DNA of 64,000 nucleotides from an uncultured Collinsella sp. (GCA_900768435.1 CAAGCW010000003.1:4599-68598), one strand, 5' to 3'; counted from the first letter of the stretch, positions 20,255 to 62,488 are shown. Notes: generated by a model not told the origin, from the sequence alone. Made by a program: numbers and translations.

Positions 20255-20276
20255 TTTAGGACGGGCAAACGATAGG

Positions 20277-26874: not shown

Positions 26875-26939
26875 GGGCTTTTGGCGGTCGCGGCATCAAC
26901 AACCAGGCACAAATAGGCGCCGACAAACGACCCCCAAAT

Positions 26940-27062
26940 CTAAGTGAGTAGGCTTTTTGGCAATAGCCAAGCACAACCCGTAGGGCGAAAACTAAAACCG
27001 CAGGTAGAGCCCTTGCACAAAAACCGTGTGCTCGCAATATCGGAGAAAGACTACTCACTTAG
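26940..27062. repeat. 123-bp element bounded by a 13-bp terminal inverted repeat (copy 1)
   Basis: Ends ctaagtgagtagg ... ctactcacttag. Shares an internal aaaaccgcaggtaga block with copies 2 and 3. Confidence 0.7.
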
Positions 27063-27184
27063 TTCGCAACAGCACAAAACGGGTAGGCAGAACGCCCATT
27101 TCCTGCATTTTCTCGCGCGCAGGCACCCCGCGCCGCCGCTACGCCATAATGGATGGCGGACAAACGCGAGAGAAAGTTAACCGC

Positions 27185-29866
27185 ATGACGCAAAGCACGA
27201 CAGATATCGCCGCCAGCACCGTCTCCGGCGCCGGCGCCGCCAGCTCATTCTCGGGCGGCACGGGAACCGAGGCCGAGTTCGGCTCGCTCGGCGCGCTCTC
27301 CCCCACCTGGTGGGAGCCCGAGGACGGCAGCGAGCCCGAACCGTGGCTCACGCCCGACCAGGCCTTCGAACGCTTCTTTGAATGGACGAGCGACCGCGGC
27401 ATTGAGCTGTGGGACCACCAGGAAGAGGCCCTCATGGACCTGGCCGCCGGCGATCACGTCATCCTGGGCACACCGACCGGATCGGGCAAATCGCTCGTCG
27501 CGCTGGGCATGCTCTTTATGGGCATGGCGCAGGGCAAGCGCTGCTATTACACGGCCCCCATCAAGGCCCTGGTCAGCGAAAAGTTCTTCGACCTGGTGCA
27601 GGTGCTCGGCCGCGATAACGTCGGCATGATCACCGGCGACACACACATCAATACCAAGGCGCCCGTCATCTGCTGCACGGCCGAAATCCTTGCCAACGAT
27701 GCACTGCGCGAGGGTGAGGATGCCGACGTGGGCTGCGTGGCCATGGACGAGTTCCACTACTTCGCCGACCCCGACCGCGGTTGGGCCTGGCAGGTGCCGC
27801 TGCTTACCCTTCCCCACACGCAATTTATGCTCATGAGTGCCACGCTCGGCGATGTCACCGCCATCGCCGCCTCACTCGAAGAGCACACCGGCGCCACATG
27901 CGACCTGGTCGTCGATGCCCCGCGTCCTGTTCCGCTGAGCTACGACTATGTGACGACCTCCCTCGAAGGCACGGTCGAGCTCGCCATGCGCCGCGGCGAG
28001 GCCCCGCTCTACATCGTGCACTTTAGTCAGGACGCCGCACTTGCGACGGCGCAGTCGCTCGCCAACTTCGGCATCGCCAGCAAGGAGCAGCGCGAGGCCA
28101 TTAAGGAAGCCGCCAAAGGCACGAGCTTCTCCACGGCCTTTGGCAAGATTCTCAAGCGCCTGCTCGGATGCGGCGTCGGCGTGCACCATGCTGGCATGTT
28201 GCCGCGCTACCGCCTGCTGGTCGAGCGCTTGGCGCAGCAGGGCCTGCTACCCGTCATCTGCGGCACCGATACGCTCGGCGTCGGTATCAACGTGCCCATC
28301 CACACCGTTGTGCTCACCGCGCTCACCAAGTTCGATGGCTACAAGATGCGTCGTCTGCGCGCCCGCGAGTTCCATCAGATTGCCGGTCGTGCCGGCCGCT
28401 CGGGCTTCGATACCGAGGGCATGGTCATCGCCGAGGCACCCGAGCACGAGATCGAGAATGCCAAGCTTATGGCCAAGGCGGGCGACGACCCCAAAAAGCT
28501 CCGCAAGATTAAAAAGAAGAAGGCCCCCGAGGGCTTTGTCACCTGGAACAAGCAGACGTTCGAGCGCCTGATCGAGACGCAGCCCGAGACACTCAAGCCG
28601 CGCCTGCGCATCACGCACTCCATGGTGATTAGCGTGGTCGAGCAGGGTGGCGATGCCCGAGCCCGCGTACACGACCTCATCGAGACGAGCCTGCAGACCC
28701 CCGAGGAAAAGGCTAAGCTCGAGGTTCGTGCCGACGAGATCTTCGCCACGCTCATCGATTCCGGCGTCGTCGTGCGCACCGAGGTGCCGCCCGCACCCGA
28801 CGCTCCGGCTGACGCCGCGCCGGACATCGACTACGCACTGACGGTCGATCTGCCCGAGGACTTCGCGCTCGATCAGCCGCTCTCGCCGTTCTTACTTGCC
28901 GCATTGGAGCTGCTCGATCCCGAGAGCGAGACCTATACCATGGATCTGATCTCAATGGTCGAGGCAACGCTCGAGGATCCCAAGCAGGTGCTGCGCGCAC
29001 AGGAGCGCGCAGCACGCGATCGCGCTATGGCCGAGATGAAAGCCGACGGCATTGAATATGAGGAGCGTCTGGAGCGCATTCAAGACGTCACGTATGAAAA
29101 GCCGCTCGAGGATTTGCTCGACGCCGCCTTTGACAAGTACTGCCAGGAAGTGCCCTGGGCCAACGACTATCAGCTCTCTCCCAAGAGCGTTCTGCGCGAT
29201 ATGCTCGAAAGCGCGAGCGATTTTAAGGGTTACATTCAAAAGCTCGGCATCGCCCGCTCCGAGGGCATTTTGCTGCGCTACCTGGCAGAGGCCTATCGTT
29301 CGCTCGACCGCACCGTGCCCATCGAGAAGCGCGACGAACGCCTGCGCGACATTATCTCGTGGCTGGGCTTTGTGGTGCGCTCGGTGGACTCGAGCCTGGT
29401 GGACGAGTGGGAGAACGCCGGCAACCCCGCTGCACTCGACGCCGCACCGCCGCAGGGCATCGATGAAGTCGTGGCAGACCGCCGTGGCTGCACCCTGCTG
29501 GTGCGCAACGCACTCTTCCGCCGCGTGACCCTTGCCGCCCGCGAGCACATTCGCGACCTGGGCGAACTCGACGACGACTGGGGCATGAGCGAGATCCGCT
29601 GGCAAAAGGCCCTCGATGCCTACCATGAGCAGCATGAGGAAATTCTCACCGACGGAGACGCCCGCAGTGCCGCAATGTTTTCCATCGATGAGTCCGACGA
29701 GAAGACCGCGCACGTATGGCACGTGCACCAGATCTTTGCCGACGAGGATGGCGACCACGATTTTGGCATCATGGGCGATGTCGATCTGGACGCCACGCAA
29801 GACGGCGGCGAGGTAATCTTCAAAAACTACCGCGTCGGCTTTATCGAGGACCTGCTCGAGAACTAG
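27185..29866 (+). CDS. Ski2/DEAD-DEAH-like helicase with C-terminal DUF3516-like region
   Basis: Motif I GTPTGSGKS, DEFH box, SAT, HELICc (QIAGRAGRSG), then a C-terminal extension of about 450 aa. Confidence 0.7.
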   Translation: MTQSTTDIAASTVSGAGAASSFSGGTGTEAEFGSLGALSPTWWEPEDGSEPEPWLTPDQAFERFFEWTSDRGIELWDHQEEALMDLAAGDHVILGTPTGSGKSLVALGMLFMGMAQGKRCYYTAPIKALVSEKFFDLVQVLGRDNVGMITGDTHINTKAPVICCTAEILANDALREGEDADVGCVAMDEFHYFADPDRGWAWQVPLLTLPHTQFMLMSATLGDVTAIAASLEEHTGATCDLVVDAPRPVPLSYDYVTTSLEGTVELAMRRGEAPLYIVHFSQDAALATAQSLANFGIASKEQREAIKEAAKGTSFSTAFGKILKRLLGCGVGVHHAGMLPRYRLLVERLAQQGLLPVICGTDTLGVGINVPIHTVVLTALTKFDGYKMRRLRAREFHQIAGRAGRSGFDTEGMVIAEAPEHEIENAKLMAKAGDDPKKLRKIKKKKAPEGFVTWNKQTFERLIETQPETLKPRLRITHSMVISVVEQGGDARARVHDLIETSLQTPEEKAKLEVRADEIFATLIDSGVVVRTEVPPAPDAPADAAPDIDYALTVDLPEDFALDQPLSPFLLAALELLDPESETYTMDLISMVEATLEDPKQVLRAQERAARDRAMAEMKADGIEYEERLERIQDVTYEKPLEDLLDAAFDKYCQEVPWANDYQLSPKSVLRDMLESASDFKGYIQKLGIARSEGILLRYLAEAYRSLDRTVPIEKRDERLRDIISWLGFVVRSVDSSLVDEWENAGNPAALDAAPPQGIDEVVADRRGCTLLVRNALFRRVTLAAREHIRDLGELDDDWGMSEIRWQKALDAYHEQHEEILTDGDARSAAMFSIDESDEKTAHVWHVHQIFADEDGDHDFGIMGDVDLDATQDGGEVIFKNYRVGFIEDLLEN

Positions 29867-29887
29867 CCAAACATACTGGAACGGAAT

Positions 29888-29929
29888 AAAACGAGGCCGT
29901 TGGCACTATCGCCAGCGGCCCCGTTTTTG
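29888..29929. terminator. Bidirectional terminator between the convergent helicase and DUF2130 genes
   Basis: ggccgttggc / gccagcggcc stem flanked by an A-run and a T5 run. Confidence 0.5.
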
Positions 29930-29945
29930 CACTATCCGCTATGCC

Positions 29946-31703
29946 TTACTCGGCATCCTCGACCTCATACGAATCCGCCTCGGCTGGCTCATCGTTCGTC
30001 TCTGTCGCGGCCCCGCGCGCCTCGTCAAACGCTGCTTTCATGGTCTTGTTGCCCCACGTGAGCTTGCGAATGGTAAGATCGTCGGCTTTCTTGTTGGCAA
30101 GGCGCAGATTGTTCTCGGAGGACAGCAACGCCTCCTTGGTTTTCTGCAGATGGCTAATCGTCTTGTCGATCTCATCGATTGCCGTTTGGAACTTGCGGCT
30201 CGCGATCTCGTAGTTGCGGCCGAAATCGTTCTTGAACTTCTCCATCTTGGCTTCGAAGTTCGTGACATCGATATTCTGCTGCTTGTACTCCGCCAGCTCC
30301 TGCTTATAGCGAAGCGAACCCATGGCGGCATTGCGTAGCAGCGTAATGATGGGAATGAAGAACTGCGGGCGGATCACATACATCTTCTCGTAGCGATAGC
30401 TCACGTCCACGATTCCCGCGTTGTAAAGCTCGCTCTCGGGCTCGAGCAGCGTGCAGAGCACCGCGTACTCACAGCCTTTCTGGCGACGATCGTGATCGAG
30501 TTTCTTAAAGAAGTCCTCGTTTTTATGCTTGGTCGCGGTCTCGTCGTTCTCGTTTTTCATCTCGAACATAATCGAAATGACCTCGTTGCCGCTCGCGTCG
30601 CGCTCACGGAAAATGAAGTCTCCCTTGGTGCCCTCGGATGCATCGTTATCTTTCTCGAAGTACGCATTGGGAAACGCCGTCATGCGCAGACGGTTAAACT
30701 CGGTCTCGCAGTGCTGCTCGAGCGACTCGCCCACCATCTTGGTGGACAGGCGAACCTTCATGTCCTTAAGGCGCTCAATCTCTTCATCCTTGTAGCGAAT
30801 CAGGTCATCGCTCGCGCGCTTGGCCTGCGCAAGCTCGAGCTCGTGTGCCGCCTTGGCTTGCTCCTCGCGAGAATCGCGCACCGCCAGCTCGCTCGTCAGT
30901 TTGGCACGTGCCTCATCGCGTTCTCGCTCCGCCGCGGCGACCGCCTCTGACAGGTTCATTTTTGCCATCAGTTCCTGCTCGCGCAGCTGGGCACGCAGGC
31001 CCTCGGCCTCTTGCTCGGACTGAGCCTTTGCGGCGGAAAACTTCTCTTGCACCTTCGCGCGATAGTCAGTAAGCGCGCGCTCGGCCTCGCTGCGAGCGGC
31101 ATCGAGCTCACGCTGCGACTCTGCCGCGGCAGCGGCAAGCGCCATCTCCTGGGCCTTGTCCGCCGCGGCGATCCTGGCCTGCAGCTCGGCAATCTGAGCG
31201 TCGCGCGCGGACAGGTCGTTTTGAGCAGCATTGCGTGCCGCCGCCTCGGCAAGCCTGGCTTCATCATCTTTGCGCTCCAACTGCGCACGTAAATTGTCGA
31301 TCTCGCGCTGAAGCTCGGCATTCTCCTTTTGAGCATCGGAACGGGCCTCAACCGCCGCGCGCTGACTTGCACTCTCGCGCTCTGCGGCAGCGCCTTCGAG
31401 CTTGGCGTGCAGCTCGGCAAGCTCAGCGTCGCGCTTGGCAACCTCTTGTGCCAGCTGCTGAGCTGCAGCGTTCTTCTGCTCGACAAGCTGAGCGTCGCGC
31501 TGAGACTCTGCCTTTTGCAAAGCAGCCGTCGAGCGCGAGCGCTCAAGCTCCAGTGCCTGCTCGCCCTCGCGCTGGACCGCCTTCACGCGCTCATCCAGGT
31601 CGCGCGAGAACTCGGCATCGCGCACCTGCTTGACGATATCCGCATAACCGGACGCATCGACCTTAAAAACTTCGCCGCAATGCGGGCACTTGATCTCGTT
31701 CAT
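29946..31703 (-). CDS. DUF2130-family protein: zinc ribbon, long coiled coil and a PD-(D/E)xK-like nuclease-type C-terminal domain (RmuC-like organisation)
   Basis: CPHCGEVF start, about 300 aa of A/E/R/Q coiled coil, then GDFIFRERD...EMK. RBS gaggag. Confidence 0.6.
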
Positions 31704-31796
31704 GGCAGCTCCTCGATGGACGCAAATATCAATCGTCTACACTCTACCGCGCCGCACGGACAAAAAAGACGCCGCCGCCACAATGGCAACAGCGCC

Positions 31797-31837
31797 AAAA
31801 CCACCACAAAGGGGACAGGCACCTTTGTGGTGGTTTA
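31797..31837. terminator. Bidirectional terminator (perfect 15-bp stem)
   Basis: aaaccaccacaaagg / cctttgtggtggttt. Confidence 0.55.
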
Positions 31838-31842
31838 AGTTC

Positions 31843-32607
31843 TTACAGGTCGCGGTAGTCGATCAGGCGAAGATCGGGCTGAGACTCGAGCCAAGCGCGA
31901 AGCTCAGGATCGATCAGTGCATCGACTTCCTTGGTACGATCGGTCGTAAGCGAGCTGTTCTCGAGGATAAAACGATCGAGGTAGCCCGGATGGCAAACAA
32001 AGACGACCGTCTCGCCGTCCACCATCTCGCGAACCGTCTGCATAATTGCCTCTTTGGGCTCGTAGCCCGGCTCCATCGAGCGCATCACCATGCGTAGGCC
32101 GGTATCTCCGCAATGCACCACCGCCGTGGAGTCGAAGCTCGCCTTTTGCTCCTTAAGACCCAGCTCCTGGGCAACCGCCGAGATCGCTCGGTTAAGGTTT
32201 TCGCTCATGACGGCATGGGCCTCAAAGTAATCGGGCTCGCGGCCCACAATCTCGACAAAGCGGTCATGCTGCGCGCGGATCTCGATGCAGGCCTCGTCAA
32301 AGTCTACCAACTCCTCGCCGCGCTTAAAGTGCTCGCGGAAGGTACGGCTGCTATGGAACTCGCCGCGTTCGTCGAGCATGCTCGGAATGAGCGCCGGGTC
32401 GGCGCAGGGCTTGCCCAGGCACACATTGGTATGTTGACCCACCGCAATGCCGGCATCCGCCACGAGCGACCAGCCGCGTTCGGCCTCGGGCATATTCGGC
32501 ATAAGGCCAGCCGAGCGTACCAGACCCTCGTTGACGCTGCGGGCGATCCCCAAGTCAACGGCATACGAATAACCGATATCATCGGCACGAATAAGCAGTT
32601 GCTTCAC
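31843..32607 (-). CDS. ChbG/YdjC-family carbohydrate deacetylase
   Basis: YdjC-like N-terminus RADDIGYS with conserved His/Asp positions. GTG start. Confidence 0.7.
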   Translation of the reverse strand: MKQLLIRADDIGYSYAVDLGIARSVNEGLVRSAGLMPNMPEAERGWSLVADAGIAVGQHTNVCLGKPCADPALIPSMLDERGEFHSSRTFREHFKRGEELVDFDEACIEIRAQHDRFVEIVGREPDYFEAHAVMSENLNRAISAVAQELGLKEQKASFDSTAVVHCGDTGLRMVMRSMEPGYEPKEAIMQTVREMVDGETVVFVCHPGYLDRFILENSSLTTDRTKEVDALIDPELRAWLESQPDLRLIDYRDL

Positions 32608-32684
32608 AACGACTCCAATCTATGGAAAAGGGCACCTGGAGCGTAGCCAAGTGCCCCGGTAATTCTCCTACTTAAGCAGATGCC

Positions 32685-34133
32685 TTAAGCCCTGGCGGCG
32701 GCAGCATCTTCCTCGAGCTGCTCCTTGGTAAAGCCAAAGAAGTAGGCGATGGCAGCAGCGGCAACGAATGCAGCGCCCGACGCAACGCATCCCCATACGA
32801 GATTAGAGGTTCCGCCGGCAACAAATCCAGTGATGCCCAGGATATTAGTCGCGCCCAAAACATACGTCGTCACATTGGTGAGAGCAGCGATCAGGCCACC
32901 GATAGCACCGCCGGCAACCATGGCGCCCAGGCAGCGGGTGTACTTAAAGCCGCAGCCATACAGCGCGGGCTCCGTCACGCCGCCGACAATGCCGGAGAGC
33001 GAGAAACCAAGCATGGCGCCCTTTTCGTCGGTCTCCTTCAGGCGCAGGAAGGCGCCGAAGGCCATGCCCCACGTAGCGAACTGAGCGATGCCGCCCGCGA
33101 CCATAACGCAGGAGTCAGAGCCCAAGGTGAGCAGCTGCACAATGCCAAGGGTAAGCAGAACCTGGTGCATGCCGGTCATAACCAGGAACTCCCAAAGTGC
33201 GGCAATGGCAACGAGGGAGAGGATCGTGACGATGCCGCCGGCGTTGCCGAGGCCGAACATGAAGTTACCAACCACATTACCCAAGATGGAGCCAATCGGA
33301 GCCAGCGCACACAGCGAAACGGGAATCATAACGGCCATGGTGCACACGGGCACAAATACCGTAGAGAGCATGTCGGGAATGACCTTCTTCATGAACTTCT
33401 CGACGACCATGAGCACCGGCATGGACAAAACCATGGGGAGCACGGTGGCAGAATAGTTGTTCAGCTGGGCCGGCAGCACGCCATAAACCATCGTGGTCGT
33501 AGCGCCCGAATCCGCTGCTGCGTTAACCAGCGTCATGAACTCGGGGGCAATGAGCACGCCACCGAGCATCATGCCGAGCGGCTGACTGCAGCCGAGCTGC
33601 TTTGCGGCAGCCCAACCCAGATAGACAGGAAGGAAATAATAGCCGGCGTTGTAAATCCAGTTGTAGAAGAAGTTATAAATGTCGGAATCGGCAGCCCAGA
33701 TACCGAGCATACCGTCACCGCAAAGTACGGCAATGGTACGGAACATGGCGGCGCCCATGATGATGGGGATCGTCATGACCATTGTCTTGGACAGGTAGTT
33801 AAGGGTCTTCTTGCCCGCAGTCTTAAGCGTCAGCGGCTCCTTGGTGCCGTCATCGAGATTCTCGTCAATGGAGCCTTCGCCCTTAACGCCCAGCGCAATG
33901 GCAGCGTCATAGACCTTTGGCACGTTCTGGCCAATGATGACCTGATACTGGCCGCCAGACCACTGCGCACCCAGCACGCCCTTGATCTTCTTAACCTCGT
34001 CGTCATTGGGGATGGACTGATCCTTGAGGTTCAGACGCAGGCGGGTCATGCAGTGCGTCGCGTTCGTCACATTGGAGGCGCCGCCGACGGCAGCGAGCAC
34101 GTCCTCGGCAATCTTCTTGTTATCGACAGCCAT
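32685..34133 (-). CDS. PTS EIIBC component (glucose/beta-glucoside superfamily)
   Basis: N-terminal EIIB with the phospho-Cys motif CMTRLR, then a 10-TM EIIC. ATG at MAVDNKK with RBS agaaggga. Confidence 0.75.
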   Translation of the reverse strand: MAVDNKKIAEDVLAAVGGASNVTNATHCMTRLRLNLKDQSIPNDDEVKKIKGVLGAQWSGGQYQVIIGQNVPKVYDAAIALGVKGEGSIDENLDDGTKEPLTLKTAGKKTLNYLSKTMVMTIPIIMGAAMFRTIAVLCGDGMLGIWAADSDIYNFFYNWIYNAGYYFLPVYLGWAAAKQLGCSQPLGMMLGGVLIAPEFMTLVNAAADSGATTTMVYGVLPAQLNNYSATVLPMVLSMPVLMVVEKFMKKVIPDMLSTVFVPVCTMAVMIPVSLCALAPIGSILGNVVGNFMFGLGNAGGIVTILSLVAIAALWEFLVMTGMHQVLLTLGIVQLLTLGSDSCVMVAGGIAQFATWGMAFGAFLRLKETDEKGAMLGFSLSGIVGGVTEPALYGCGFKYTRCLGAMVAGGAIGGLIAALTNVTTYVLGATNILGITGFVAGGTSNLVWGCVASGAAFVAAAAIAYFFGFTKEQLEEDAAAARA

Positions 34134-34154
34134 GTCGAATCCCTTCTCTTCCAA

Positions 34155-34474
34155 CTAAAAGCTCGTGGGGCTTCACGACGCCAAGACACACGATTCTGCT
34201 CGCACCTGCGCAGCGCGCGATGCCCGTTGGCAAGAGATTTCATTGCATGTGATTCCCGGGTGGATCGACATGAAAAAAGCCCCGCGCACAACCGACAGAG
34301 ACCCAATAATGGCCTCGGCAGAATCGGTAGTGCCTCTCGGAGCTGCGCCGTGAGTAACACCCAACACACGGCGAGTATATACGGCAGACTCGTTCGCCGC
34401 GGATCAGATTACCGACGAACGGTAGCAAATGAACCGCGAACGGTCGTCGTGACAGAGGAGAAACGCCAGAAACC
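34155..34474 (-). promoter_or_regulatory. Leader region between licT-like and PTS genes with a putative RAT/terminator attenuator
   Basis: Minus-strand transcript contains GGGTGTTACTCACGGCGCAG, resembling the RAT consensus GGATTGTTACTG. A downstream GC-rich segment is followed by a T6 run. Confidence 0.35.
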
Positions 34475-35311
34475 CTAGTTATCCTGGCTGTTAGGAGCCA
34501 CGCGATTCACGTGCATGATCAGATAGACGAGCTCCTCTTGGGCCAAGGGCTCGCCAAAGGTCTCTTGAATCAGGGCGTCGACACGATGAGCACAACGCGA
34601 TGCCGCTGGATACTGCTCCACGAGCACGTCGTAGAGACCGGAGTTCTCGGTATCGATCGGTTCCTTCTTTGCCACGCGGTCGAGTAGATAGCGCACATGA
34701 GTGGCAAAGCGAGTAAAGGCGAACGACGAGCGATCGACCGTCACACCCAGCTCTTCTTGAATAATCGCGACCGTCATATCGAGCAGCCGTTCCTCGTGCT
34801 GCTCGGCAAGCACGCGCCGTTCGCTCGGCTTAACCGATGCGTTGACAATCGACATGGCAATGCCCGCGGCCTCGCTTCGGGGCATACGCACACGGAAGCT
34901 TTTCTGAATACCGCGAACAGCCAACTCGCCCAAGCGGTATTCGATGGGATGCAGCTGCTCCAGATCGCGCTCGAGCGGCAGCGACACCACCATATGCTCA
35001 CGGGCGCGCTTAATGGCAAACTGAATATGGTCTGCCAATGTAATGGGAAGATTAGGGCTCAATTCGTACGAAAGCTGTCCGGTTGCGATATCGGCCAGCT
35101 GAGCAGAAAACTCCAGCACCTCGGGATCGACCTCGTCGATAAACGCCAGGTACTTTGAATCGATGCCGTAAAAGGTGCGTGTAATAACATCCAGATCGAC
35201 CTCGTGCGGCATCTCGCCAAAACCGATGCCGCGACCCAGCGCGATAAGCTGACGCCCTGCGCCGTCTTCACAGATGGCAGCATTGTGGTTAATGCGCTGG
35301 ATAGCCCTCAT
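34475..35311 (-). CDS. BglG/LicT-family transcription antiterminator (CAT domain plus two PRDs)
   Basis: N-terminal CAT RNA-binding region and two PRD regions with conserved His. RBS aggagcg. Confidence 0.75.
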   Translation of the reverse strand: MRAIQRINHNAAICEDGAGRQLIALGRGIGFGEMPHEVDLDVITRTFYGIDSKYLAFIDEVDPEVLEFSAQLADIATGQLSYELSPNLPITLADHIQFAIKRAREHMVVSLPLERDLEQLHPIEYRLGELAVRGIQKSFRVRMPRSEAAGIAMSIVNASVKPSERRVLAEQHEERLLDMTVAIIQEELGVTVDRSSFAFTRFATHVRYLLDRVAKKEPIDTENSGLYDVLVEQYPAASRCAHRVDALIQETFGEPLAQEELVYLIMHVNRVAPNSQDN

Positions 35312-35384
35312 GAAATCTTCGCTCCTACTAAAAAGCGCCGCGCAGACCATCCACGCAGCGCGTTCATTCTACCTGCACTTGCAG

Positions 35385-35930
35385 CTATAGTCCAAAGAAG
35401 CCCAGGATCTGGTCGCGGCTTACGGGCTTGTAGCCATTGGCGTCGAGACCGACATCGTAGCGAAAGACAGGGCGCTCGCGATCGCGATTGCGCGCATTGG
35501 TGCGGTCTCCCCTACTATGGATATGCCCGTGCAGCATGATGGCGCCGCGCGCCTTGCCGTTCCAGCTGAGCATGGGGTAATGGCTCATCACCAGGCGATG
35601 GCCCTTCGCGTAACCGGGAGCGATCTCCAGATAATCGCGCACCTCATCCCAAATCTGCGGCGCGTCCGGATCCTCCCAATCGCCGTCATGGTTACCACGG
35701 ATAAGCGTCACATTCTGACATTCGATGCGCTTACGCAGGTGCACCGCCTCCGCCATGGGTAATCGATACGTAAAGTCTCCCAGGATATAGAGGCGGTCGT
35801 CCGCAGCCGCGCACTCGTTAATGGCATCGATGACCTTACGATTCATTTCCTCGACCGAGGCAAACGGCCGATCCATGTCGTGCAAGATATTCGTATCGCC
35901 CAGGTGCAGGTCGGCGGTAAACCACATCAT
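35385..35930 (-). CDS. Calcineurin-like metallophosphoesterase
   Basis: DLHLGD, GDFT, GNHD and GHIH metallophosphatase motifs. Confidence 0.65.
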   Translation of the reverse strand: MMWFTADLHLGDTNILHDMDRPFASVEEMNRKVIDAINECAAADDRLYILGDFTYRLPMAEAVHLRKRIECQNVTLIRGNHDGDWEDPDAPQIWDEVRDYLEIAPGYAKGHRLVMSHYPMLSWNGKARGAIMLHGHIHSRGDRTNARNRDRERPVFRYDVGLDANGYKPVSRDQILGFFGL

Positions 35931-35996
35931 TGTCTCTGTCCCCATTTCGCTGTGCGTATAAGACCTGTTTAGTATACAGACGCAGCGATGCGACAG

Positions 35997-36176
35997 TTAT
36001 CCAAAGAGCCCGCCGAACAAGCCTCGGCGGCGCTTGTCCTGCTTTTTCGAAGCGTCGCCCTGGGCTTGCTTGTCCTGCCGCTTTTTACGGTCCTGCTCCA
36101 GCTCATCGTCATCGAGCAGCTGATCCCACTCAAACGGATCATCTGTCAGATCGAACAGGTCGTCGTCATCAAACAT
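35997..36176 (-). CDS. Small highly acidic protein (59 aa) not in the ORF track
   Basis: MFDDDDLFDLTDDPFEWDQLLDDDELEQDRKKRQDKQAQGDASKKQDKRRRGLFGGLFG. RBS ggagg 6 nt before the ATG. Lies directly downstream of the HIRAN gene. Confidence 0.3.
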   Translation of the reverse strand: MFDDDDLFDLTDDPFEWDQLLDDDELEQDRKKRQDKQAQGDASKKQDKRRRGLFGGLFG

Positions 36177-36194
36177 GACCGCCTCCCTTCCCAG

Positions 36195-36521
36195 CTAGCG
36201 AGCATCCACCACATAGAGGCCAACGCGAACCTGATGCCACGGGCTGCGCTCGGGCGCAACCTGTTGCACACGAGCCTCAAATACGCCCTCGTGCCCGTAA
36301 TACATCATCAAGGACAGCGGGCCAACCTCGTTTCCCGGAACATACCCAAGCTTGGTCTTGCCGTAATAGATCGCAACCGCCTCGGGGTCGTGAGGGTTAT
36401 CGCGCTCGGCACACAGCGTCAGTCTATCGCCCACCTTAAGATCGCCCAGGACCAAGGCGCCGTCGGCATACTGAAATCCCGCGATATGAAATGACAGAAG
36501 AACACGTGAAGGCTCGTACAT
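36195..36521 (-). CDS. HIRAN-domain protein
   Basis: FHIAGFQYADG...ERDNPHDPEAVAIY matches the HIRAN signature. RBS agaggag. Confidence 0.6.
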   Translation of the reverse strand: MYEPSRVLLSFHIAGFQYADGALVLGDLKVGDRLTLCAERDNPHDPEAVAIYYGKTKLGYVPGNEVGPLSLMMYYGHEGVFEARVQQVAPERSPWHQVRVGLYVVDAR

Positions 36522-36596
36522 AGCAGCTCCTCTAACGGCCGGATAAACCGGCATCTAACCTTATTGAGAAGTCTACGGGCCCGTGCGGACACAATT

Positions 36597-37976
36597 CTAA
36601 TGCACGAACATGCGCACAAACTTGTGCTTCCAGCTTGCATACGGGGCGTAGCGGAACGGTACGTCGAGCCACGTCGCCTTGTTCACGATGCTCTTCTTGT
36701 GGCTAAACGTATCGAAGCTCTCGCGTCCATGGTATTGCCCCATGCCGCTCGCGCCCATGCCGCCAAAGCCCATATGGCTCGTGGCCAAGTGCATGATCGT
36801 GTCGTTGACGCATCCGCCGCCAAAGGGCACATAGCGCACAAAGCGCTGCTGAGTTGCACGGTCTTGGCTAAAGACATACAGGGCCAGCGGCGTCGGGCGA
36901 TCCGTGATAAACGTCTCGGCCTCGTCTAGGCTCTCAAACGTCAGCACCGGCAAGATAGGACCGAAAATCTCCTCCTGCATCACGGCGTCATCGGGGGCCA
37001 CACCGTCCAAAATCGTCGGCTCAATCTTGAGCGAAGCCTCGCGCGCGCCACCTCCAAGCACGACCTTATCGGGATCGAGCAGCCCGCGAACGCGAGCAAA
37101 ATGCTTGGCGTTGACGATATGCCCGTAATCCTCGTTGTCGAGCGGATGCTCACCAAACATGCGGCGGACTTCCTCCTTGATGAGGTCCAGCAGCTCGTCG
37201 TGCACGCGCGCATCGACCAGCAGGTAGTCGGGTGCCACGCAGGTCTGCCCCACGTTGAGCCATTTGCCAAAGGCGATACGCCGTGCCGCGACCTGCAGGT
37301 TTGCCGTCGCATCCACGATGCAGGGGCTCTTTCCGCCCAGCTCAAGCGTCACGGGCGTAAGGTTTTTACTCGCGCGCTCCATGACGAGCTTGCCGACCGG
37401 AACGCTACCGGTAAAGAAGATTTTGTCCCAGCACTCATCGAGGAGCGCCTCGTTCTCGGCGCGGCCACCCTCCACAACCGTCACCAGGCGCGGGTCGAAT
37501 GTCTCTTCGCAGATTTGTTTGAGCACCGCGCTCGATGCCGGAGCATAGGCACTCGGCTTGATGACCACGGTATTGCCCGCGGCAAGGGCGCCGGCGAGCG
37601 GCTCGAGCGTCAGCAAGAACGGATAGTTCCATGGAGCCATGATAAGCGTGACGCCATAGGGTACGGCCTGCGTCTTGCACACGCTCACGGCGTTGGCGAG
37701 GTCGCACGGGCGCAGGCGCGGACGACTCCATCGAGCCACGTGCGCAATCTGATGACGGATCTCGGAAAGCGAGGTGCCGATCTCGCACATATAGGCTTCG
37801 TCATGTGACTTACCCAGATCGGTCTTGAGCGCATGGGCAATATCGGCTTCGTGCGCCCGCACTGCGTCGCGCAAGCTCACGAGCGCGCGACGGCGAGCGT
37901 TGACATCAAACGTGGCGTGCGTCTTAAAATAGGCGCGCTGATCGGCAACGATGCGCGCGATTTCCTCGGTGTTCAT
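36597..37976 (-). CDS. NAD(P)-dependent aldehyde dehydrogenase
   Basis: ALDH family with ELGGKSP and a catalytic Cys region (GQTCVAPDY). Confidence 0.8.
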   Translation of the reverse strand: MNTEEIARIVADQRAYFKTHATFDVNARRRALVSLRDAVRAHEADIAHALKTDLGKSHDEAYMCEIGTSLSEIRHQIAHVARWSRPRLRPCDLANAVSVCKTQAVPYGVTLIMAPWNYPFLLTLEPLAGALAAGNTVVIKPSAYAPASSAVLKQICEETFDPRLVTVVEGGRAENEALLDECWDKIFFTGSVPVGKLVMERASKNLTPVTLELGGKSPCIVDATANLQVAARRIAFGKWLNVGQTCVAPDYLLVDARVHDELLDLIKEEVRRMFGEHPLDNEDYGHIVNAKHFARVRGLLDPDKVVLGGGAREASLKIEPTILDGVAPDDAVMQEEIFGPILPVLTFESLDEAETFITDRPTPLALYVFSQDRATQQRFVRYVPFGGGCVNDTIMHLATSHMGFGGMGASGMGQYHGRESFDTFSHKKSIVNKATWLDVPFRYAPYASWKHKFVRMFVH

Positions 37977-37984
37977 GGGCCCTC

Positions 37985-39205
37985 CTAGTTCTCGTCTTCA
38001 AACATACCACCCGCAACGACCTCGTACATATGCTCGAGCTCCAAACGGTCCATTAAAAGCGGAACGGGGTACAGGGGATTGGCCTCGGCATCGGCATGCG
38101 CCGCCATCTCAGGAATGTCGGAGCGGCGAATGCCCGTCACATATTTGGGTATGCCCAAGGCGGCGTTCATGCGGTCGACCCAATCGATAAAGGCCTCAGC
38201 AGCCACGTTGTCCAGCGCATTAGCCGGCGCAATGCCGGCCATGCGGGCGAGATCGGCGAGCTTGGGAGCAGCAGCTTCGCCATAGGCACGAAGCATATGC
38301 GGCAGGATGATAGCGTTGGCCAAGCCGTGCGGAATCCCGTAACGCCCGCCCAAGCTGTGTGCGATGGCATGCACATATCCAACATAGGAGCGCGTAAAGG
38401 CAACACCCGCCTTATACGCCGCCGAAAGCATATTGCGGCGCGCACGCATGTTCTCCCCGTGCTCATAGGCCTCGAGCAAATTGTCGTGGATGAGCTGCAC
38501 CGCCTGGCGCGCCATCTTGCGCGTGTAGGGCGTGGTGCTACGGCCGATAAAGGCCTCGACGGCATGCGTCAGGGCATCCATACCCGTCTGCCCCGTAATG
38601 GAGGCGGGCAGGCCACGTGTAAACTCGGGGTCGTGCACCGCAAAGCGCGGGATCAGCACAAAGTCGTTAATGGGATACTTGTAGTGCGTCTCGTCGTCGG
38701 TAATTACCGCTGCAAGCGTGACCTCGCTTCCCGTGCCCGCCGTGGTGGGAACGGCGATGAGCAGCGGCAGGCGACGATGGATACGCAACAGGCCGCGCAT
38801 CTTGTTGATGGGCTTCTTTGGCTGCGCGATGCGCGCGCCCACGCCCTTGGCGCAGTCCATGGCCGAACCGCCGCCAAAGCCGATAATGGCCTGGCAGGCG
38901 CTCTCTCGATACAGAGATGCCGCTTCCTCCACGTTTGAGACCGTGGGGTTCGCACGCGTTTCGGCATAGACCGCAGCGCTAATTCCCTTGGACGCGAGCG
39001 CTGTCTCGAGCGGTGCCGTGAGCCCCAGACGGGCAATGCCGGGATCTGTCACGATAAGAACATGGTGTATTGAACGCTTTTGAAGCACTGCGGGCACTTC
39101 CTCAGCGTGCTCTAAAATGCGTGGCTCGGTATAGGGCAGCACCGGCAATGCGATGCGAAAAACCGTTTGATACGTTCGGCACCAGGCGCGGCGGGCTAGA
39201 TGCAT
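37985..39205 (-). CDS. Iron-containing alcohol dehydrogenase
   Basis: Fe-ADH family motifs (GGGSAMD, HAIAHSLGG). Start at MHLARR with RBS gaaggag. Confidence 0.8.
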   Translation of the reverse strand: MHLARRAWCRTYQTVFRIALPVLPYTEPRILEHAEEVPAVLQKRSIHHVLIVTDPGIARLGLTAPLETALASKGISAAVYAETRANPTVSNVEEAASLYRESACQAIIGFGGGSAMDCAKGVGARIAQPKKPINKMRGLLRIHRRLPLLIAVPTTAGTGSEVTLAAVITDDETHYKYPINDFVLIPRFAVHDPEFTRGLPASITGQTGMDALTHAVEAFIGRSTTPYTRKMARQAVQLIHDNLLEAYEHGENMRARRNMLSAAYKAGVAFTRSYVGYVHAIAHSLGGRYGIPHGLANAIILPHMLRAYGEAAAPKLADLARMAGIAPANALDNVAAEAFIDWVDRMNAALGIPKYVTGIRRSDIPEMAAHADAEANPLYPVPLLMDRLELEHMYEVVAGGMFEDEN

Positions 39206-39222
39206 AAAGGAAGCTCCTTCAT

Positions 39223-39240
39223 TTGTTGATTGGTCAACAT
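39223..39240. promoter_or_regulatory. 18-bp palindrome TTGTTGA-TTGG-TCAACAT immediately upstream of the adh RBS
   Basis: Inverted repeat seen directly. Lies in the adh / rubrerythrin divergent region. Confidence 0.35.
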
Positions 39241-39461
39241 TTGCTCGACCGATTGTACTCATCGGAGGTCGCACGAGGTCTAGCAATCGTTAATCAATCA
39301 ACATCTACACATGCTTAAATTGTTTTATTAAAAATCATTCCTAATAGGCTTCACATTCGGTCTCATTTATGGATAATAGAACTCGTCAAGACGCACGTCC
39401 GGAGAGGGCCCTTACGGGACCGGACGAGCGCACCATCGCCATCGATCGAAAGGATCGAATC

Positions 39462-40022
39462 ATGAAGTTTGTTTGCCCCGTTTGCGGTTATGTGGAAGAG
39501 TTCGACGGCGACCAGCTGCCCGAGGATTTCAAGTGCCCCCAGTGCGGCGTTCCCGGCTCTCGCTTCCTGAAGCAGGAGGAGGGCCAGCTCGAGTGGGCTG
39601 CCGAGCACGTCGTGGGCGTCGCCAAGATGGAGGGCGTCTCCGAGGACATCGTTGCCGATCTGCGCGCCAACTTTGAGGGCGAGTGCTCTGAGGTCGGTAT
39701 GTACCTGGCCATGGCTCGCGTCGCTCATCGCGAGGGCTATCCCGAGATCGGCCTGTACTGGGAGAAGGCTGCCCACGAGGAGGCCGAGCATGCCGCCAAG
39801 TTCGCTGAGCTCCTGGGCGAGGTCGTGACCGACTCCACCAAGAAGAACCTCGAGATGCGCGTTGAGGCCGAGAACGGTGCCACCGCCGGCAAGACCGATC
39901 TCGCCAAGCGCGCCAAGGCCGCTGGTCTCGATGCCATCCACGACACCGTGCACGAGATGGCTCGCGACGAGGCTCGCCACGGCAAGGCTTTCGCCGGTCT
40001 GCTCAAGCGCTACTTCGGCTAA
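39462..40022 (+). CDS. rbr: Rubrerythrin (reverse type: N-terminal rubredoxin-like domain, C-terminal ferritin-like domain)
   Basis: CPVCG...CPQCG at the N-terminus, then a four-helix diiron E..H-motif region. Confidence 0.8.
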
Positions 40023-40055
40023 GCCAACCGCCTGAGAGATAATCTCTAGCTCAAT

Positions 40056-40087
40056 GAGGCCCGGACCGCACGGTTCGGGCCTTTTTC
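40056..40087 (+). terminator. Intrinsic terminator after rubrerythrin
   Basis: ggcccgga / tcgggcc stem followed by T5. Confidence 0.5.
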
Positions 40088-40153
40088 GTGCCTCGCGCAG
40101 TTCTTAACGGCCCAAAATAGGACCGGCCACGGCATCAACCCCCCCGTCAAAAA

Positions 40154-40276
40154 CTAAGTGAGTAGGTCGTTTGGAAAATCTCAAGCAGACCGATTATCTT
40201 GTTTTGTAAAACCGCAGGTAGATAGCTTGTTGTAAAACGGTCTGGTCGGCAAAACGCGAATAGCCTACTCACTTAG
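40154..40276. repeat. 123-bp TIR-bounded element (copy 2)
   Basis: ctaagtgagtagg ... cctactcacttag. About 85% identical to copy 3. The right TIR encodes the L-S-E-stop end of the DUF559-like gene. Confidence 0.75.
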
Positions 40277-41398
40277 ATCGGTGACCGTCCACGATTGGGC
40301 CTTCTTGTATCTAACGGGCTTCCTTTTGTCGATTTCTCCCAGTTTTGACCAGTCAATGAATAGCTCAGACCGGAGTAGCGTCTCGGCCCTTTGCTCCTCC
40401 GGGCTTTTATCGCGATATTCAACATCGAGCATCCTGCATATGGCCTTCACGATCGCTCGAAATCTATCCGCATCGGATATCTGTCCGTGAGTCAGGAGAA
40501 GCACGTCGTAGCCCATGGCCTGTAGCGCCGTCATGCGATCGGCATCACGCAAACCGTCCCCCGCTCGCCCATGCGAGGCCTTTCCCTGGCATTCAATAGC
40601 AACCTGTCGCTCTCCGTCCGGCGAAGACAGAAGTAGGTCTATGTATACGCGGGACTTTCCTACAATCGCTCGAGCACTTGTGCTTAGCGCCACTTCGACA
40701 TTAAGTTCTATGCCGCAAAAACCTTCGCCTCCCAGGGATCGTGGCAACCCAAGCAACAAATACGTCTCAACCTCAAAAGGCGATGCTGCGCCCAGTGGAA
40801 CGAGATGCGATACCGCGACAAATCGCTTGCCGTAACGCATCCCACAAACATCTGAACAAAAACGGTCAAGATCTTCGCCCAAAACCAAAGCCTCGCGCCG
40901 CCACATATCTGAAGCGGTCCCGTCCTCGGACGGACAGCATGTCCAGCCAAAGTCTGCCGGAATCGACTTCGAATCAATTGCGCGCGAAAGCTCCGCCTCA
41001 AGTGCCGCCGGCAAGGCACACACCGCAAACAAGCCGCACACCTCTGCCAATACCAAAAGAAGCTGCAGATCCGTCAGATGCCGCGACATGATGAATGCCG
41101 TCAGCAGAGGAGACGTAACCAAAAACCCATGTTCCGTTTCTAGCACGGATTCCCTGGGGAGCTCGTCTAGGAACAGCCGCTGCCTAATGCTGACAGGGCA
41201 AGTCCGCTTGTTTCTCGTCCGAACCAATGTATACAATGGCAAGCCGAGTGCAACCGCAGCCGTCGGATTATGGACGAGGTCATGTCGCAGTCGGTCTTCT
41301 TCCGGCCGTGGAAGTGGCGGGCACAGAGCAAGGACCTGAGGGGGCAAGCGCCAGTATCTAAAAGCCGATATGTCACAAAGTAAGTCCTTCATAGACAC
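40265..41398 (-). CDS. DUF559 / Vsr-like endonuclease-domain protein
   Basis: C-terminal region VYIDLLL...IECQG..HGRAGDGLRDADRMTALQAMGYDVLLLT resembles the restriction-endonuclease-like DUF559 fold. Flanked by repeat copies 2 and 3. Confidence 0.45.
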   Translation of the reverse strand: MSMKDLLCDISAFRYWRLPPQVLALCPPLPRPEEDRLRHDLVHNPTAAVALGLPLYTLVRTRNKRTCPVSIRQRLFLDELPRESVLETEHGFLVTSPLLTAFIMSRHLTDLQLLLVLAEVCGLFAVCALPAALEAELSRAIDSKSIPADFGWTCCPSEDGTASDMWRREALVLGEDLDRFCSDVCGMRYGKRFVAVSHLVPLGAASPFEVETYLLLGLPRSLGGEGFCGIELNVEVALSTSARAIVGKSRVYIDLLLSSPDGERQVAIECQGKASHGRAGDGLRDADRMTALQAMGYDVLLLTHGQISDADRFRAIVKAICRMLDVEYRDKSPEEQRAETLLRSELFIDWSKLGEIDKRKPVRYKKAQSWTVTDLSE

Positions 41399-41573
41399 AG
41401 GGAAACACGAATTTCAACCCGGGCGCTCACGCATTGGCGCGAACGCACCGAAAAGGGGGCTGAACGGACTGCTGAGTTTTCAACAGCCCTGCCCAGCTGA
41501 CCAAAAGCTTGCCAAGAGCTGGACGGAGCACTGTTGAAAACCTGATGTTTCTCTCGCGCGGAAGCTTTGCGCA

Positions 41574-41696
41574 GCAAGTGAGTAGGCTTCTTGGAGCATC
41601 CCGAGCAGACAGTTCATCTTGTTTTGCAAAGCCGCAGGTAGACGGCTTGCTGCAAAACGGTCTGGTCGCCACCGCGCCAAAAGCCTACTCACTTAG
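41574..41696. repeat. 123-bp TIR-bounded element (copy 3)
   Basis: gcaagtgagtagg ... cctactcacttag. The right TIR encodes the L-S-E-stop end of pdxR. Confidence 0.75.
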
Positions 41697-43124: not shown

Positions 43125-43269
43125 GAGTTTGTCACCTGACCTTATCGAGCTATTCAATCTGGTATTAGTCTGACCTTGTTATTATCTTCAAAACTGAGTA
43201 TTCCGCCATACCCAGCTCCCCGATAGGATGTTCCGTCAAGCAATGCACATGCCAACCAAGGGAGCAACC

Positions 43270-44936: not shown

Positions 44937-45065
44937 CATATTGCGATAGACGACCACGTTTGCCCAGATAAAACCGACCAAATAAACCTGTCCCCTTTTG
45001 GTAGGTTTGGATCAAGGCAACGCCGATGTTTTGGCAACGCCAGCGAGCGCCGCCCAGGGCGAACA

Positions 45066-45108
45066 AGTTGGCATGAAAAAGGCAAGGCATAGACCTTCTG
45101 GTCATGCC
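45066..45108. terminator. Bidirectional intrinsic terminator
   Basis: aaaaaggcaaggcat ... atgccttgccttttg: perfect 14-bp stem with A and T tails. Confidence 0.6.
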
Positions 45109-45189
45109 TTGCCTTTTGAATGACAAATTGTCGCCCTGGGTGGCGCGCAGCGTCAACTAGTTACGCGGTTTGATAAAACCGCGTAACCC

Positions 45190-62295: not shown

Positions 62296-62488
62296 TACGT
62301 TCCTCCATAGGGTCGTTGTAACCGCTTAAGTATACGGTACCCACACATTTTCATGCGTAAAATACCGTCCGTCTGCTACAAAGCGCCGAACATCAACATG
62401 CGAGGAACAGCAAGGTTGTAAAGACGATATAGTAAGTGAGTTCGTGTCAATCGGCCTAAACTCGGGGCCGAACAAGGAAAGGGTATGC

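Follow-up and report, generated by a model that had tools for sequence, protein, structure and literature searches.

What is a 123-bp repeat doing at the ends of genes, and does the gene enclosed by two of its copies have any part in it? The question is raised by a 64,000-nucleotide stretch of DNA (the window) from Collinsella, a gut bacterium. Three copies lie in it, each exactly 123 bp long and each on the plus strand as set by its centre motif, at the positions given in the original prediction. Copy 1 (locus A, 26940-27062) is a solo palindrome between genes for a TrmB-like methyltransferase and a DUF3516 DEAD-box helicase. Copy 2 (locus B, 40154-40276) separates the convergent genes for rubrerythrin (39369-40022, plus strand) and a nuclease-like protein of 377 aa (40265-41398, minus strand). 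Copy 3 (locus C, 41574-41696) lies between the start of the nuclease-like gene and the end of a gene for a 490-aa regulator of the PdxR/MocR type (GntR plus aminotransferase; 41685-43157, minus strand), so that copies 2 and 3 bracket the 377-aa gene, as had been claimed.

The inverted ends are well supported. Their motif, CTAAGTGAGTAGG, occurs six times in the window at up to two mismatches, against 0.46 occurrences expected, and six was reached in 0 of 100 shuffles. The 13-nt arms are perfect in copy 2, with one mismatch in the right arm of copy 1 and two in the left arm of copy 3, whose left end is GCAAG rather than CTAAG; its orthologues share this GCAAG or ACAAG left end. The internal block AAAACCGCAGGTAGA is common to all three copies in one orientation, with one mismatch in copy 3. 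The centre motif AAAACCGCAGGTA lies at 40208-40220 (plus strand) in copy 2, with its axis at element base 62 (ACC-GCA-GGT), and its equivalents are at 26994-27006 and 41628-41640. An inner block in the left arm of copy 2 (40182-40190, plus strand; element positions 29-37, CAAGCAGAC) pairs in register with positions 87-95 (40240-40248). Other details of the original prediction did not hold: copies 2 and 3 are 79.7% identical without gaps instead of about 85%, the upstream flank said to be shared by copies 1 and 2 comes down to one common 10-mer that is not collinear in orthologues, and the end-like TAAGTGAGT near 62432 is an isolated short match without a partner arm, probably due to chance.

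Beyond the window, copy 1 (nhmmer, 88 bits) has orthologous copies in 18 metagenome loci, and copy 2 has them in C. aerofaciens ATCC 25986 (L014:1027) and at L027:5330. In total, 193 full-length copies were found in 161 fetched loci, and these loci contained no internal fragments and no truncated or decayed copies. This establishes the predicted dispersed family bounded by inverted repeats, and its placement at gene 3' ends, mostly between convergent genes. About 13 orthologous sites hold all copies in all the Collinsella DNA fetched, and subfamilies are lineage-specific, with G, H and I in one MAG and A-E, J and K in the aerofaciens group.

Each copy, 123 ± 1 bp long, is a composite palindrome centred at base 62. 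From the outside inwards it consists of an outer block (1-19/105-123), then an inner block (29-37/87-95), and finally an asymmetric centre, AAAACCGCAGGT. Within the three blocks every pair joins position i to 124-i, in strict register, and the spacers between them are unpaired but of constant length. Positions 1-19 and 105-123 pair in nearly all copies, giving arms of 13-19 nt, and the family consensus of the inner block is GAGCAC/GTGCTC, or GAGTAGA/TCTACTC in other lineages. Exact 10-nt cores and their spacing are retained in all 38 copies that had not been selected for by the search pattern. Within-locus diversity rises from 0.000 (core) through 0.056 (centre) and 0.076 (inner block) to 0.14-0.17 (spacers), the flanks standing at 0.15-0.17. 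Purifying selection acts in place on core, inner block and centre; the spacers change as fast as the flanks. The three copies of the window are members of a small, strongly conserved palindrome family in Collinsella. Judged from the sequences, in-register blocks with unpaired spacers of fixed length are the pattern expected of protein sites on duplex DNA. Changes on both sides are seen at positions 2/122, 13/111 and 35/89, the last switching from C-G to G-C; covariation of this kind in an inverted repeat is equally expected for a hairpin or a cruciform.

The elements supply the stop codons of the genes that run into them, as predicted. Both minus-strand reading frames, 40265-41398 (..TDLSE*) and 41685-43157 (..NLSE*), end with TAG inside a right arm; in copy 2 (40264-40276) the minus strand reads CTA AGT GAG TAG, i.e., L-S-E-stop, and the equivalent arm of copy 3 is at 41684-41696. 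The 11-mer TAAGTGAGTAG contains TAA, TGA and TAG, one per frame, and each of the three is used by different strains at the 377-aa gene and at pdxR. LSE-type ends without the repeat had been named as evidence against this origin of the C-termini. This test applies in part: all Collinsella orthologues have LSE-type ends, always with the repeat present, and in more distant orthologues the C-terminus comes about 22 residues earlier. Arms of other lineages lack the three-frame stop. This Collinsella-specific feature looks like a side effect, and TAAGTGAGTAG may act as a lineage-specific translational backstop for abutting genes rather than as the primary function of the arms.

We then considered the bracketed gene. 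Its protein scores 26.5 bits against Pfam PF18741, below the gathering score of 38.2; its homologues reach 18-23 bits, with one DUF559 match at 18.4 against 20.6. The DUF559 label of the original prediction is therefore not carried by Pfam but is supported by structure comparison. The predicted structure is of high confidence, and among solved folds it is closest to the catalytic domain of I-Bth0305I; a DUF559 protein, Vsr, AbiEi, TnsA and Hjc come next. The protein models as an AbiEi-like N-terminal part joined to a Vsr/DUF559-fold nuclease domain, and the Vsr-like catalytic fold of the model carries conserved acidic and histidine residues. Across 75 homologues, down to 25% identity, the putative catalytic residues D254, E269, H276 and D285 do not vary. 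Unlike the AbiEi antitoxin of type IV toxin-antitoxin systems, the protein has a C-terminal nuclease fold, no AbiEii-type partner gene adjoins its gene, and a PADLOC search gave no match; PHROG gave no match of note. The order pdxS-pdxR-gene-rubrerythrin is kept in the lineages of the 43% and 51% orthologues, and pdxR-gene-rubrerythrin synteny extends from 43% to 100% identity.

Our main new finding is about this gene, which the original prediction had treated as a bystander: its homologues adjoin palindromes in distant lineages. In nine of ten other lineages (28-51% protein identity) a palindrome of 120-165 bp lies immediately upstream and/or downstream of the homologue, at identities of 51, 51, 43, 36, 36, 34, 33, 30 and 28% (loci L162, L165, L163, L164/L174, L166, L169, L173, L171 and L172); L170 has none. 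Six of these homologue loci (~40 kb) contain no palindrome matching at 13 or more of its 14 terminal positions other than those that adjoin the gene. The outer arms vary by lineage (AAGTGAGTAGG, AAGTGAGTCGG, AAGGTGAGCTTC, CAAATGTTG, GATGTGTGTACC, ATAGGGACCCTTG and others) and match between two copies that flank one gene. On the palindrome axis, beside homologues of 28-51% identity, sits a centre motif that agrees with the 13-nt Collinsella motif at 9-12 positions in L162, L163, L165, L171, L172 and L174, is looser or offset in L166 and L169, and is absent in L173. High-GC lineages with 36% identity or more retain the inner block GAGTAGA, which is not evident in L169, L171 and L172. Palindromes stand on both sides of the gene in the window, L014, L027, L162, L165, L164/L174 and L166, and the centre motif points one way relative to the gene in some lineages and the other way in others. 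At least six genomic contexts are represented: pdxR/rubrerythrin, dnaK operon/ferredoxin, kup/nitroreductase, upstream of pth, Hpt/PfkB and AMP-binding/TetR. In these comparisons the bracketed gene is the palindromes' conserved partner, across lineages and at protein identities as low as 28%.

How should this partnership be read? The original prediction offered a MITE with an insertion preference for gene 3' ends, or a structured RNA or terminator module. An ordinary MITE derived from a DDE insertion sequence (e.g., IS630/Tc1-mariner inserting at CTAG with TA duplication), unrelated to the gene and retained at tolerant 3' intergenic sites, would account for the terminal inverted repeats, the 123-bp length, the intergenic location, the lineage-specific subfamilies and the fact that most copies end in C-TA-...-TA-G. 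Positions 2 and 122, however, change together (T-A 78, C-G 25, with C-A 25 and T-G 9 as both one-sided intermediates), so the TA at 2-3/121-122 is part of the palindrome and not a duplication. At the ~13 loci no direct repeat lies outside the 123 bp, and no flank contains a longer duplication. Empty sites are missing as well, with no junction-spanning match to joined flanks among the 161 loci; the only presence/absence case, locus E (absent from L009 and L036), involves replacement of the whole intergenic region. The 1.2 Mb of fetched DNA yielded neither isolated ends spaced as in an IS nor another, distant pair of ends, nor any transposase carrying such ends. The copies fall into only about 13 orthologous sites, none of them is decayed or partial, and they keep their conserved blocks and strict length in place as the spacers drift; the palindromes of the homologues have quite different ends around mostly the same centre. 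We regard the MITE origin as very improbable, and the lack of target duplication and empty sites also rules against a decaying MITE. Among bacterial MITEs, RUP is derived from IS630-Spn1 and Correia elements belong to Neisseria. The Collinsella elements resemble both in being small (~100-150 bp) with terminal inverted repeats, in lying between genes and in affecting the ends of their neighbours; they differ in having no target duplication, known parent insertion sequence or decayed copies, and in their very low copy number, in-place purifying selection on blocks and length, and conserved nuclease partner gene. Integron attC sites were also considered and rejected: the ends are CTAAGTGAG/CTCACTTAG and not RYYYAAC/GTTRRRY core sites, the copies are scattered among core genes, and there is no integrase near copies 1-3.

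A structured RNA, or a bidirectional transcription-terminator and translation-stop module acting at the RNA level at gene ends, fits the position of the copies, often beside or between terminators, the three-frame stops used by the strains, and whole copies that fold better than shuffles (z -4 to -7). For the predicted long hairpin, z is -4.0, -5.0 and -6.9 in the three copies, a signal due chiefly to the outer 19 bp and one inner block; in most copies the inner 85 nt are no more stably folded than shuffled sequence. Mismatches of the G-T and A-C kinds are balanced (243 vs 236), with no wobble strand bias overall and no locus consistently biased, and Rfam gave no match, either at its gathering score or with E relaxed to 1; an evident RNA was set aside on these grounds. 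Furthermore, neither a U-tract nor a terminator-like call was found at the copies, the 10-nt cores are invariant and not compensated, the three-frame stop is missing from the arms of other lineages, and the centre motif flips relative to the gene. RNA-level action thus seems highly doubtful. AbiEi binds inverted repeats and autoregulates, and the palindromes could likewise be operator or architectural sites for an AbiEi-like protein that acts as a DNA-binding regulator only, with no mobility or cleavage, the solo copies being further regulatory or insulating sites. Fixed orthologous sites under purifying selection, a copy upstream of the gene in several lineages and the fact that no movement was observed are all consistent with this. 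Most copies, however, lie downstream of genes or between convergent genes and not at promoters, the invariance of the putative catalytic residues argues for retained nuclease chemistry, and the occurrence of the palindrome-gene-palindrome unit in at least six unrelated contexts points to its relocation. A purely regulatory role is accordingly unlikely in our judgement.

The explanation we propose, with about even confidence, is that the 123-bp elements are double-stranded DNA recognition sites of the nuclease-like protein encoded between copies 2 and 3, in a partnership of the REPIN-RAYT type that would be mostly inherited vertically. In this layout, one cognate gene would have its own repeats on its flanks, and a few further repeats would stand alone in 3' intergenic regions. 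From the constrained architecture, the gene-palindrome association and the predicted fold, we infer that the protein binds the palindrome as a dimer or higher oligomer. The AbiEi-like winged-helix part may contact the GAGTAGA-type inner blocks, which lie ~26-33 bp from the axis on each side, the outer arms specific to each lineage, or both; the Vsr-fold catalytic domains may occupy the asymmetric centre, the conserved AAAACC-GCA-GGT. A nick or cut at this centre, followed by repair or recombination, could then lead to the repeats and the palindrome-gene-palindrome unit being copied, moved or maintained. Several observations count against the partnership. If the nuclease is active, the intact sites beside it would have to be protected in some way, or it would have to have a mode in which it does not cut. 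Copy number is far below that of typical REPIN populations, and no clean insertion/empty-site pair was found in the 161 loci; in addition, L170 has no palindrome and the centre motif is missing in L173 and weak in L166 and L169.

REPIN-RAYT systems pair REP doublets that form hairpins with REP-associated tyrosine transposases; the cognate gene is flanked by its own repeats, with vertical inheritance and conserved synteny, the repeat sequence tracks the gene lineage, and solo repeats lie in extragenic 3' regions (PMC3337134, PMC3116915, bioRxiv 10.1101/2022.05.22.493013). The present repeat likewise consists of two inverted conserved motifs around a variable spacer and can form a hairpin, its cognate gene is flanked by its own repeats and vertically inherited in conserved synteny, repeat sequence follows gene lineage, and solo repeats are extragenic and in 3' regions. 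The arrangement thus resembles a known partnership of repeat and enzyme, but with a different kind of enzyme: a Vsr/DUF559 (PD-(D/E)XK) fold with an AbiEi-like N-terminal part, as opposed to the HUH tyrosine transposase of IS200/IS605 type in RAYT. The repeats are three-block palindromes of 120-165 bp with a conserved asymmetric centre, in contrast to REP pairs of ~20-25 nt; they occupy ~13 sites in all the Collinsella DNA fetched, compared with tens to hundreds, and their mobility is presumed.

The nearest structural relative, I-Bth0305I, is an EDxHD/Vsr-like homing endonuclease encoded in a phage group I intron, which cuts the intron-less allele. The 377-aa gene, by contrast, is chromosomal and free-standing between housekeeping genes, gave no notable match in PHROG and has intact presumed sites on its flanks, and a homing endonuclease of the EDxHD family was rejected for these reasons. 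Identity between the two proteins is only 18%, and nuclease activity of the 377-aa protein is putative. I-Bth0305I is a multidomain homodimer with a footprint of ~60 bp and a 14-bp pseudopalindrome at its cleavage site (PMC3239194), and the span from inner block through centre to inner block in the Collinsella elements, ~67 bp, is of the same scale.

All three copies of the repeat (copies 1, 2 and 3, at 26940-27062, 40154-40276 and 41574-41696 of the window) lie where predicted, and each is exactly 123 bp long. Their inverted ends were confirmed with the 13-nt sequence CTAAGTGAGTAGG, which has six matches at up to two mismatches against 0.46 expected by chance, and the internal block AAAACCGCAGGTAGA is common to all three copies in identical orientation. 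As had been proposed, two genes stop within the right arm of an element: the 377-aa nuclease-like ORF bracketed by copies 2 and 3 (40265-41398, minus strand) and the 490-aa GntR/aminotransferase ORF of the PdxR type (41685-43157, minus strand) both finish CTA AGT GAG TAG, so that their C-termini (..TDLSE* and ..NLSE*, respectively) are encoded by the arms. Other details of the original prediction needed correction. Copies 2 and 3 are 79.7% identical rather than ~85%; the upstream flank said to be shared by copies 1 and 2 is a single 10-mer, non-collinear among orthologues; and the 9-mer near 62432, read as a partial end, is without a partner arm and is probably a chance match. The 10-mer, CGGCATCAAC, lies at window 26885-26894 and 40131-40140 and reads CGGCRTCGGC in other strains; the left flanks of the orthologous sites A and B both keep it, at differing distances from the element (~46 nt vs ~22 nt). 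For the DUF3516/DEAD helicase gene, the longest reading frame opens with a GTG inside copy 1 (window 27026-27140); as no helicase domain is reached before about residue 126, translation probably begins downstream of the copy instead.

An arm-pair scan at the right spacing, covering one genome per prokaryotic species, gave 35 Collinsella loci. Spread across phyla was rejected, since the five Planctomycetes loci that also matched are artefacts, namely tandem heptamer arrays of the GTGAGTA type. In these MAGs (L005, L007, L015, L023 and L039) the arrays, GTGAGTA/GGTGAGT with the complement opposite, surround short unique segments, and their composition makes them match the Collinsella arm pattern by chance. 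The sole viral match (L161) is AT-rich and was likewise rejected as chance. A looser scan of metagenomes gave at least 120 loci, from human-gut assemblies wherever the record names state a source. Across the 1.2 Mb fetched, a profile search recovered 193 complete elements, all of 122-124 bp, besides one partial match and one element truncated at the edge of a contig; it gave neither internal fragments nor solitary ends. Only ~13 orthologous sites host all of these copies: A, B and C (window copies 1, 2 and 3), D and E (a pair 3 kb apart), J, K, K2, M and N, and G, H and I in a single divergent MAG. Housekeeping genes surround the sites, most of which fall between a convergent pair of genes; the rest are downstream of a gene.

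The element is a palindrome with its axis at base 62, in which three blocks pair in the strict register i/124-i. These are an outer block (element positions 1-19/105-123), an inner block (29-37/87-95) and a centre, ACC-GCA-GGT, set within the conserved asymmetric motif AAAACCGCAGGT. The 9-nt and 20-nt spacers between the blocks are unpaired and free in sequence, while constant in length. In the aerofaciens group the inner block reads GAGCAC/GTGCTC or GAGCAG/CTGGTC; at sites G, H and I and in the left arm of N it reads GAGTAG/CTACTC. Two-sided changes occur at 2/122 (T-A to C-G), 13/111 (G-C to A-T) and 35/89 (C-G to G-C). Within orthologous sites, nucleotide diversity is 0.000 in the 10-nt cores, which belonged to the search pattern, 0.056 in the centre and 0.076 in the inner block, compared with 0.14-0.17 in the spacers and 0.15-0.17 in the flanks. 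Exact cores were also present in 38/38 copies found only as the second copy in a locus, which were not selected by the pattern. Together, the constraint on cores, centre and inner block and these unselected cores argue that the elements are maintained in place and are not decaying relics. Symmetric conserved blocks, fixed spacing and free spacers have the look of protein sites on duplex DNA.

Family sites differ among Collinsella lineages and the variants are lineage-specific, which points to a turnover that happens, but slowly. Two Collinsella genomes are without element E (L009:1552-1748 and L036:442-652), and in both the whole intergenic region has been exchanged for ~190 bp of unrelated sequence carrying its own terminator-like hairpin, rather than altered by precise insertion or deletion. 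On a short metagenome contig (L148:1-3267, element at 687-810), the left flank of site J, comprising an FtsX-like permease gene and its terminator, is joined to a C-type element and then pdxR, the changeover falling inside 24 nt common to the arms of J and C. The junction would represent either recombination between family copies or an assembly chimera. At sites E and D (L002:1783-2065 and 4832-5100) similarity extends past the 123 bp, by ~55 bp on one side, including a small GACCCC..GGGGT hairpin, and by ~15 bp on the other, which suggests a duplicated unit of ~200 bp. Paralogous upstream genes were ruled out as the cause, the two genes being unrelated.

The original prediction had offered two readings of the elements, a MITE-like insertion or a structured RNA/terminator module. 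For an ordinary DDE-type MITE, the ends C-TA-[..]-TA-G could be taken as an IS630-type TA duplication at a CTAG target; this was rejected, since positions 2/122 covary as a base pair and sites J, M and N carry CA..TG, so the terminal TA is part of the palindrome. No other target duplication was present at the element sites, a joined-flank probe of 161 loci found no empty sites, and with fragments also lacking a MITE is very improbable. An rve-type (DDE) integrase gene lies at L174:468-1703, ~8 kb from a unit of palindrome, gene and palindrome in a lineage with a dnaK context, and no link between it and the palindromes was found.

On four counts, nothing was found to speak for a role at the RNA level. 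Mismatches in the paired blocks are balanced between G-T and A-C (243 vs 236), with a consistent bias at no locus; RNAalifold on 154 unique copies returned the outer stem only, on either strand, and inner fold z-scores lie mostly between 0 and -2, leaving the interior no better folded than shuffled sequence; no U-tract or terminator-like call was made at the elements; and no Rfam family matched, either at the gathering score or with E relaxed to 1. We therefore give an RNA or terminator module as little credence as a MITE. Hairpin or cruciform extrusion may have a role, and the centre C-GCA-G fits the stable GNA type of DNA triloop. A purely regulatory role, with the palindromes as operators for an AbiEi-like binder, is less remote than either, and still unlikely; specific evidence counts against each of the three.

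The main result concerns homologues of the 377-aa protein. DNA around them was fetched from ten other lineages. Palindromes of 123 bp lie on both sides of the gene in L162 (51% protein identity; arms AAGTGAGTAGG and AAGTGAGTAAG), where the TGA stop of the gene again sits within a palindrome arm, and in L164/L174 (36%; arm CAAATGTTG); L165 (51%; ~122-123 bp, arm CAAGTGAGTCGG) and L166 (36%; arm GATGTGTGTACC) also have one on each side. The palindrome is downstream only in L163 (43%; arm AAGGTGAGCTTC, centre AAAACCACAGGT), downstream in L169 (34%; centre AAAGCCGCAGG) and in L173 (33%; without the centre motif), and upstream in L171 (30%, GC 45%; centre AAAAGCGCAGGTCA) and L172 (28%, GC 45%; centre AAAAGCCCAGGTAGA). 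No palindrome was seen in L170 (30%), where the contig stops short on the upstream side. In six of these loci, over ~40 kb, palindromes with at least 13/14 terminal matches occur only adjacent to the gene; the chance of all six lying there would be of the order of 1e-6, taking 400 bp on each side of the gene as ~12% of the sequence. The outer arms are wholly different among lineages, yet match between the two copies around one gene. The centre agrees with the Collinsella motif at 9-12/13 positions in six lineages and is looser or offset in L166 and L169, and a GAGTAGA inner block, ~26-33 bp from the axis, is common to the high-GC lineages of at least 36% identity, not to L169. The context pdxS-pdxR-gene-rubrerythrin is kept from 43% to 100% identity, and elsewhere the unit lies beside the dnaK operon, kup, pth, an Hpt/PfkB pair or a TetR gene. 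Gene order thus suggests vertical inheritance over long periods, as well as relocation.

The bracketed gene has no annotation as a defence-system or phage component, and such identities were set aside. Its product has only a sub-threshold Pfam match (PF18741, 26.5 vs 38.2 bits), nothing in NCBIfam or PADLOC, a marginal PHROG match and no significant match among PDB sequences. An exhaustive, profile-free search (E up to 0.001) returned 1831 cluster representatives, a large family that Pfam, NCBIfam, PADLOC and PHROG all leave without an above-threshold assignment. Members are typically ~350 aa and align to residues 3-355, suggesting that the last ~22 residues in Collinsella are an extension reaching the arm stop; the extension is also the low-confidence part of an AlphaFold2 model that otherwise scores well (pLDDT 92, pTM 0.92). 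Close homologues (at least 78% identity) are from Collinsella wherever named, and mostly end in ..LSE, with a frame-shifted minority (..ARI*) using the TAA of the arm. Across strains, the stop used in the arm is TAG in 24 and TAA in 5 for the nuclease-like gene, and TAG in 19, TGA in 8 and TAA in 2 for pdxR. The three-frame stop TAAGTGAGTAG in Collinsella arms is real and used in all three frames. The arms of other lineages lack it, so we see it as a side effect, or a secondary adaptation, specific to Collinsella.

A partnership between a repeat and its cognate enzyme is the best-supported reading: the encoded nuclease, with an AbiEi-like domain joined to a Vsr fold, would have the palindromes as its DNA sites. 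Its binding to them, a cut at the centre and any mechanism of copying are inferred. In scale this fits the one characterised structural relative, I-Bth0305I, a multidomain homodimer whose footprint covers ~60 bp and which cuts at a central pseudopalindrome (PMC3239194). Its footprint compares with ~67 bp from inner block through centre to inner block in the elements. In genomic lifestyle the system resembles REPIN-RAYT, for which the published accounts (PMC3337134, PMC3116915, bioRxiv 10.1101/2022.05.22.493013) describe a gene flanked by its own repeats and passed on vertically, repeats whose sequence is specific to the lineage, and solo copies in 3' extragenic DNA. The Collinsella elements and gene match all four features so described. 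They differ in enzyme class, repeat architecture and copy number, and for this reason we do not file them under REPIN-RAYT.

It is possible, if short of probable, that a new class of repeat system is represented here, in which composite palindromes are copied, moved or maintained by a dedicated nuclease with an AbiEi-like domain and a Vsr fold, encoded between two of them. Such palindromes would be of 120-165 bp, with lineage-specific arms, a GAGTAGA-type inner block in high-GC lineages and usually the conserved centre AAAASCSCAGGT. The class would stand beside REPIN-RAYT as its PD-(D/E)XK counterpart, or else be an insertion sequence of a new kind in which a homing-endonuclease-like enzyme served as 'transposase', and it would be widespread, given the ~1800 cluster representatives of the protein family. 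A search of open-access papers and preprints found no description of the element, of a Collinsella repeat family or of Collinsella MITEs, no DUF559/Vsr-fold protein paired with palindromic repeats, and nothing relevant on AbiEi with DUF559 or Vsr-like proteins with REP. To our knowledge, persistent, vertically inherited bacterial partnerships of repeat and enzyme are known essentially from REPINs and HUH-type RAYTs. If the proposal is true, a second, unrelated enzyme class has this lifestyle and the partnership evolved more than once; a function would be assigned to a large uncharacterised family; and a ready-made pair of enzyme and site would be at hand, the site being long, symmetric and modular, with arms that look reprogrammable by lineage. 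For annotation, it matters that neighbouring genes take their C-termini from the elements in a common human gut genus, where one gene ends at the TAG, TGA or TAA of one repeat arm depending on the strain.

Elsewhere in the window, a replication origin or terminus was ruled out by a uniformly negative GC skew, and the other long inverted repeats (20194-20331, 45047-45146 and 45246-45411) are unrelated to the elements. The stretch at 45200-45425 is highly repetitive and GC-rich, with many near-repeats of GCCACCGCG/ACCGCCACGG; it was detected solely by scoring as a long inverted repeat, and on the minus strand it probably codes for an Arg/Gly-rich tail.
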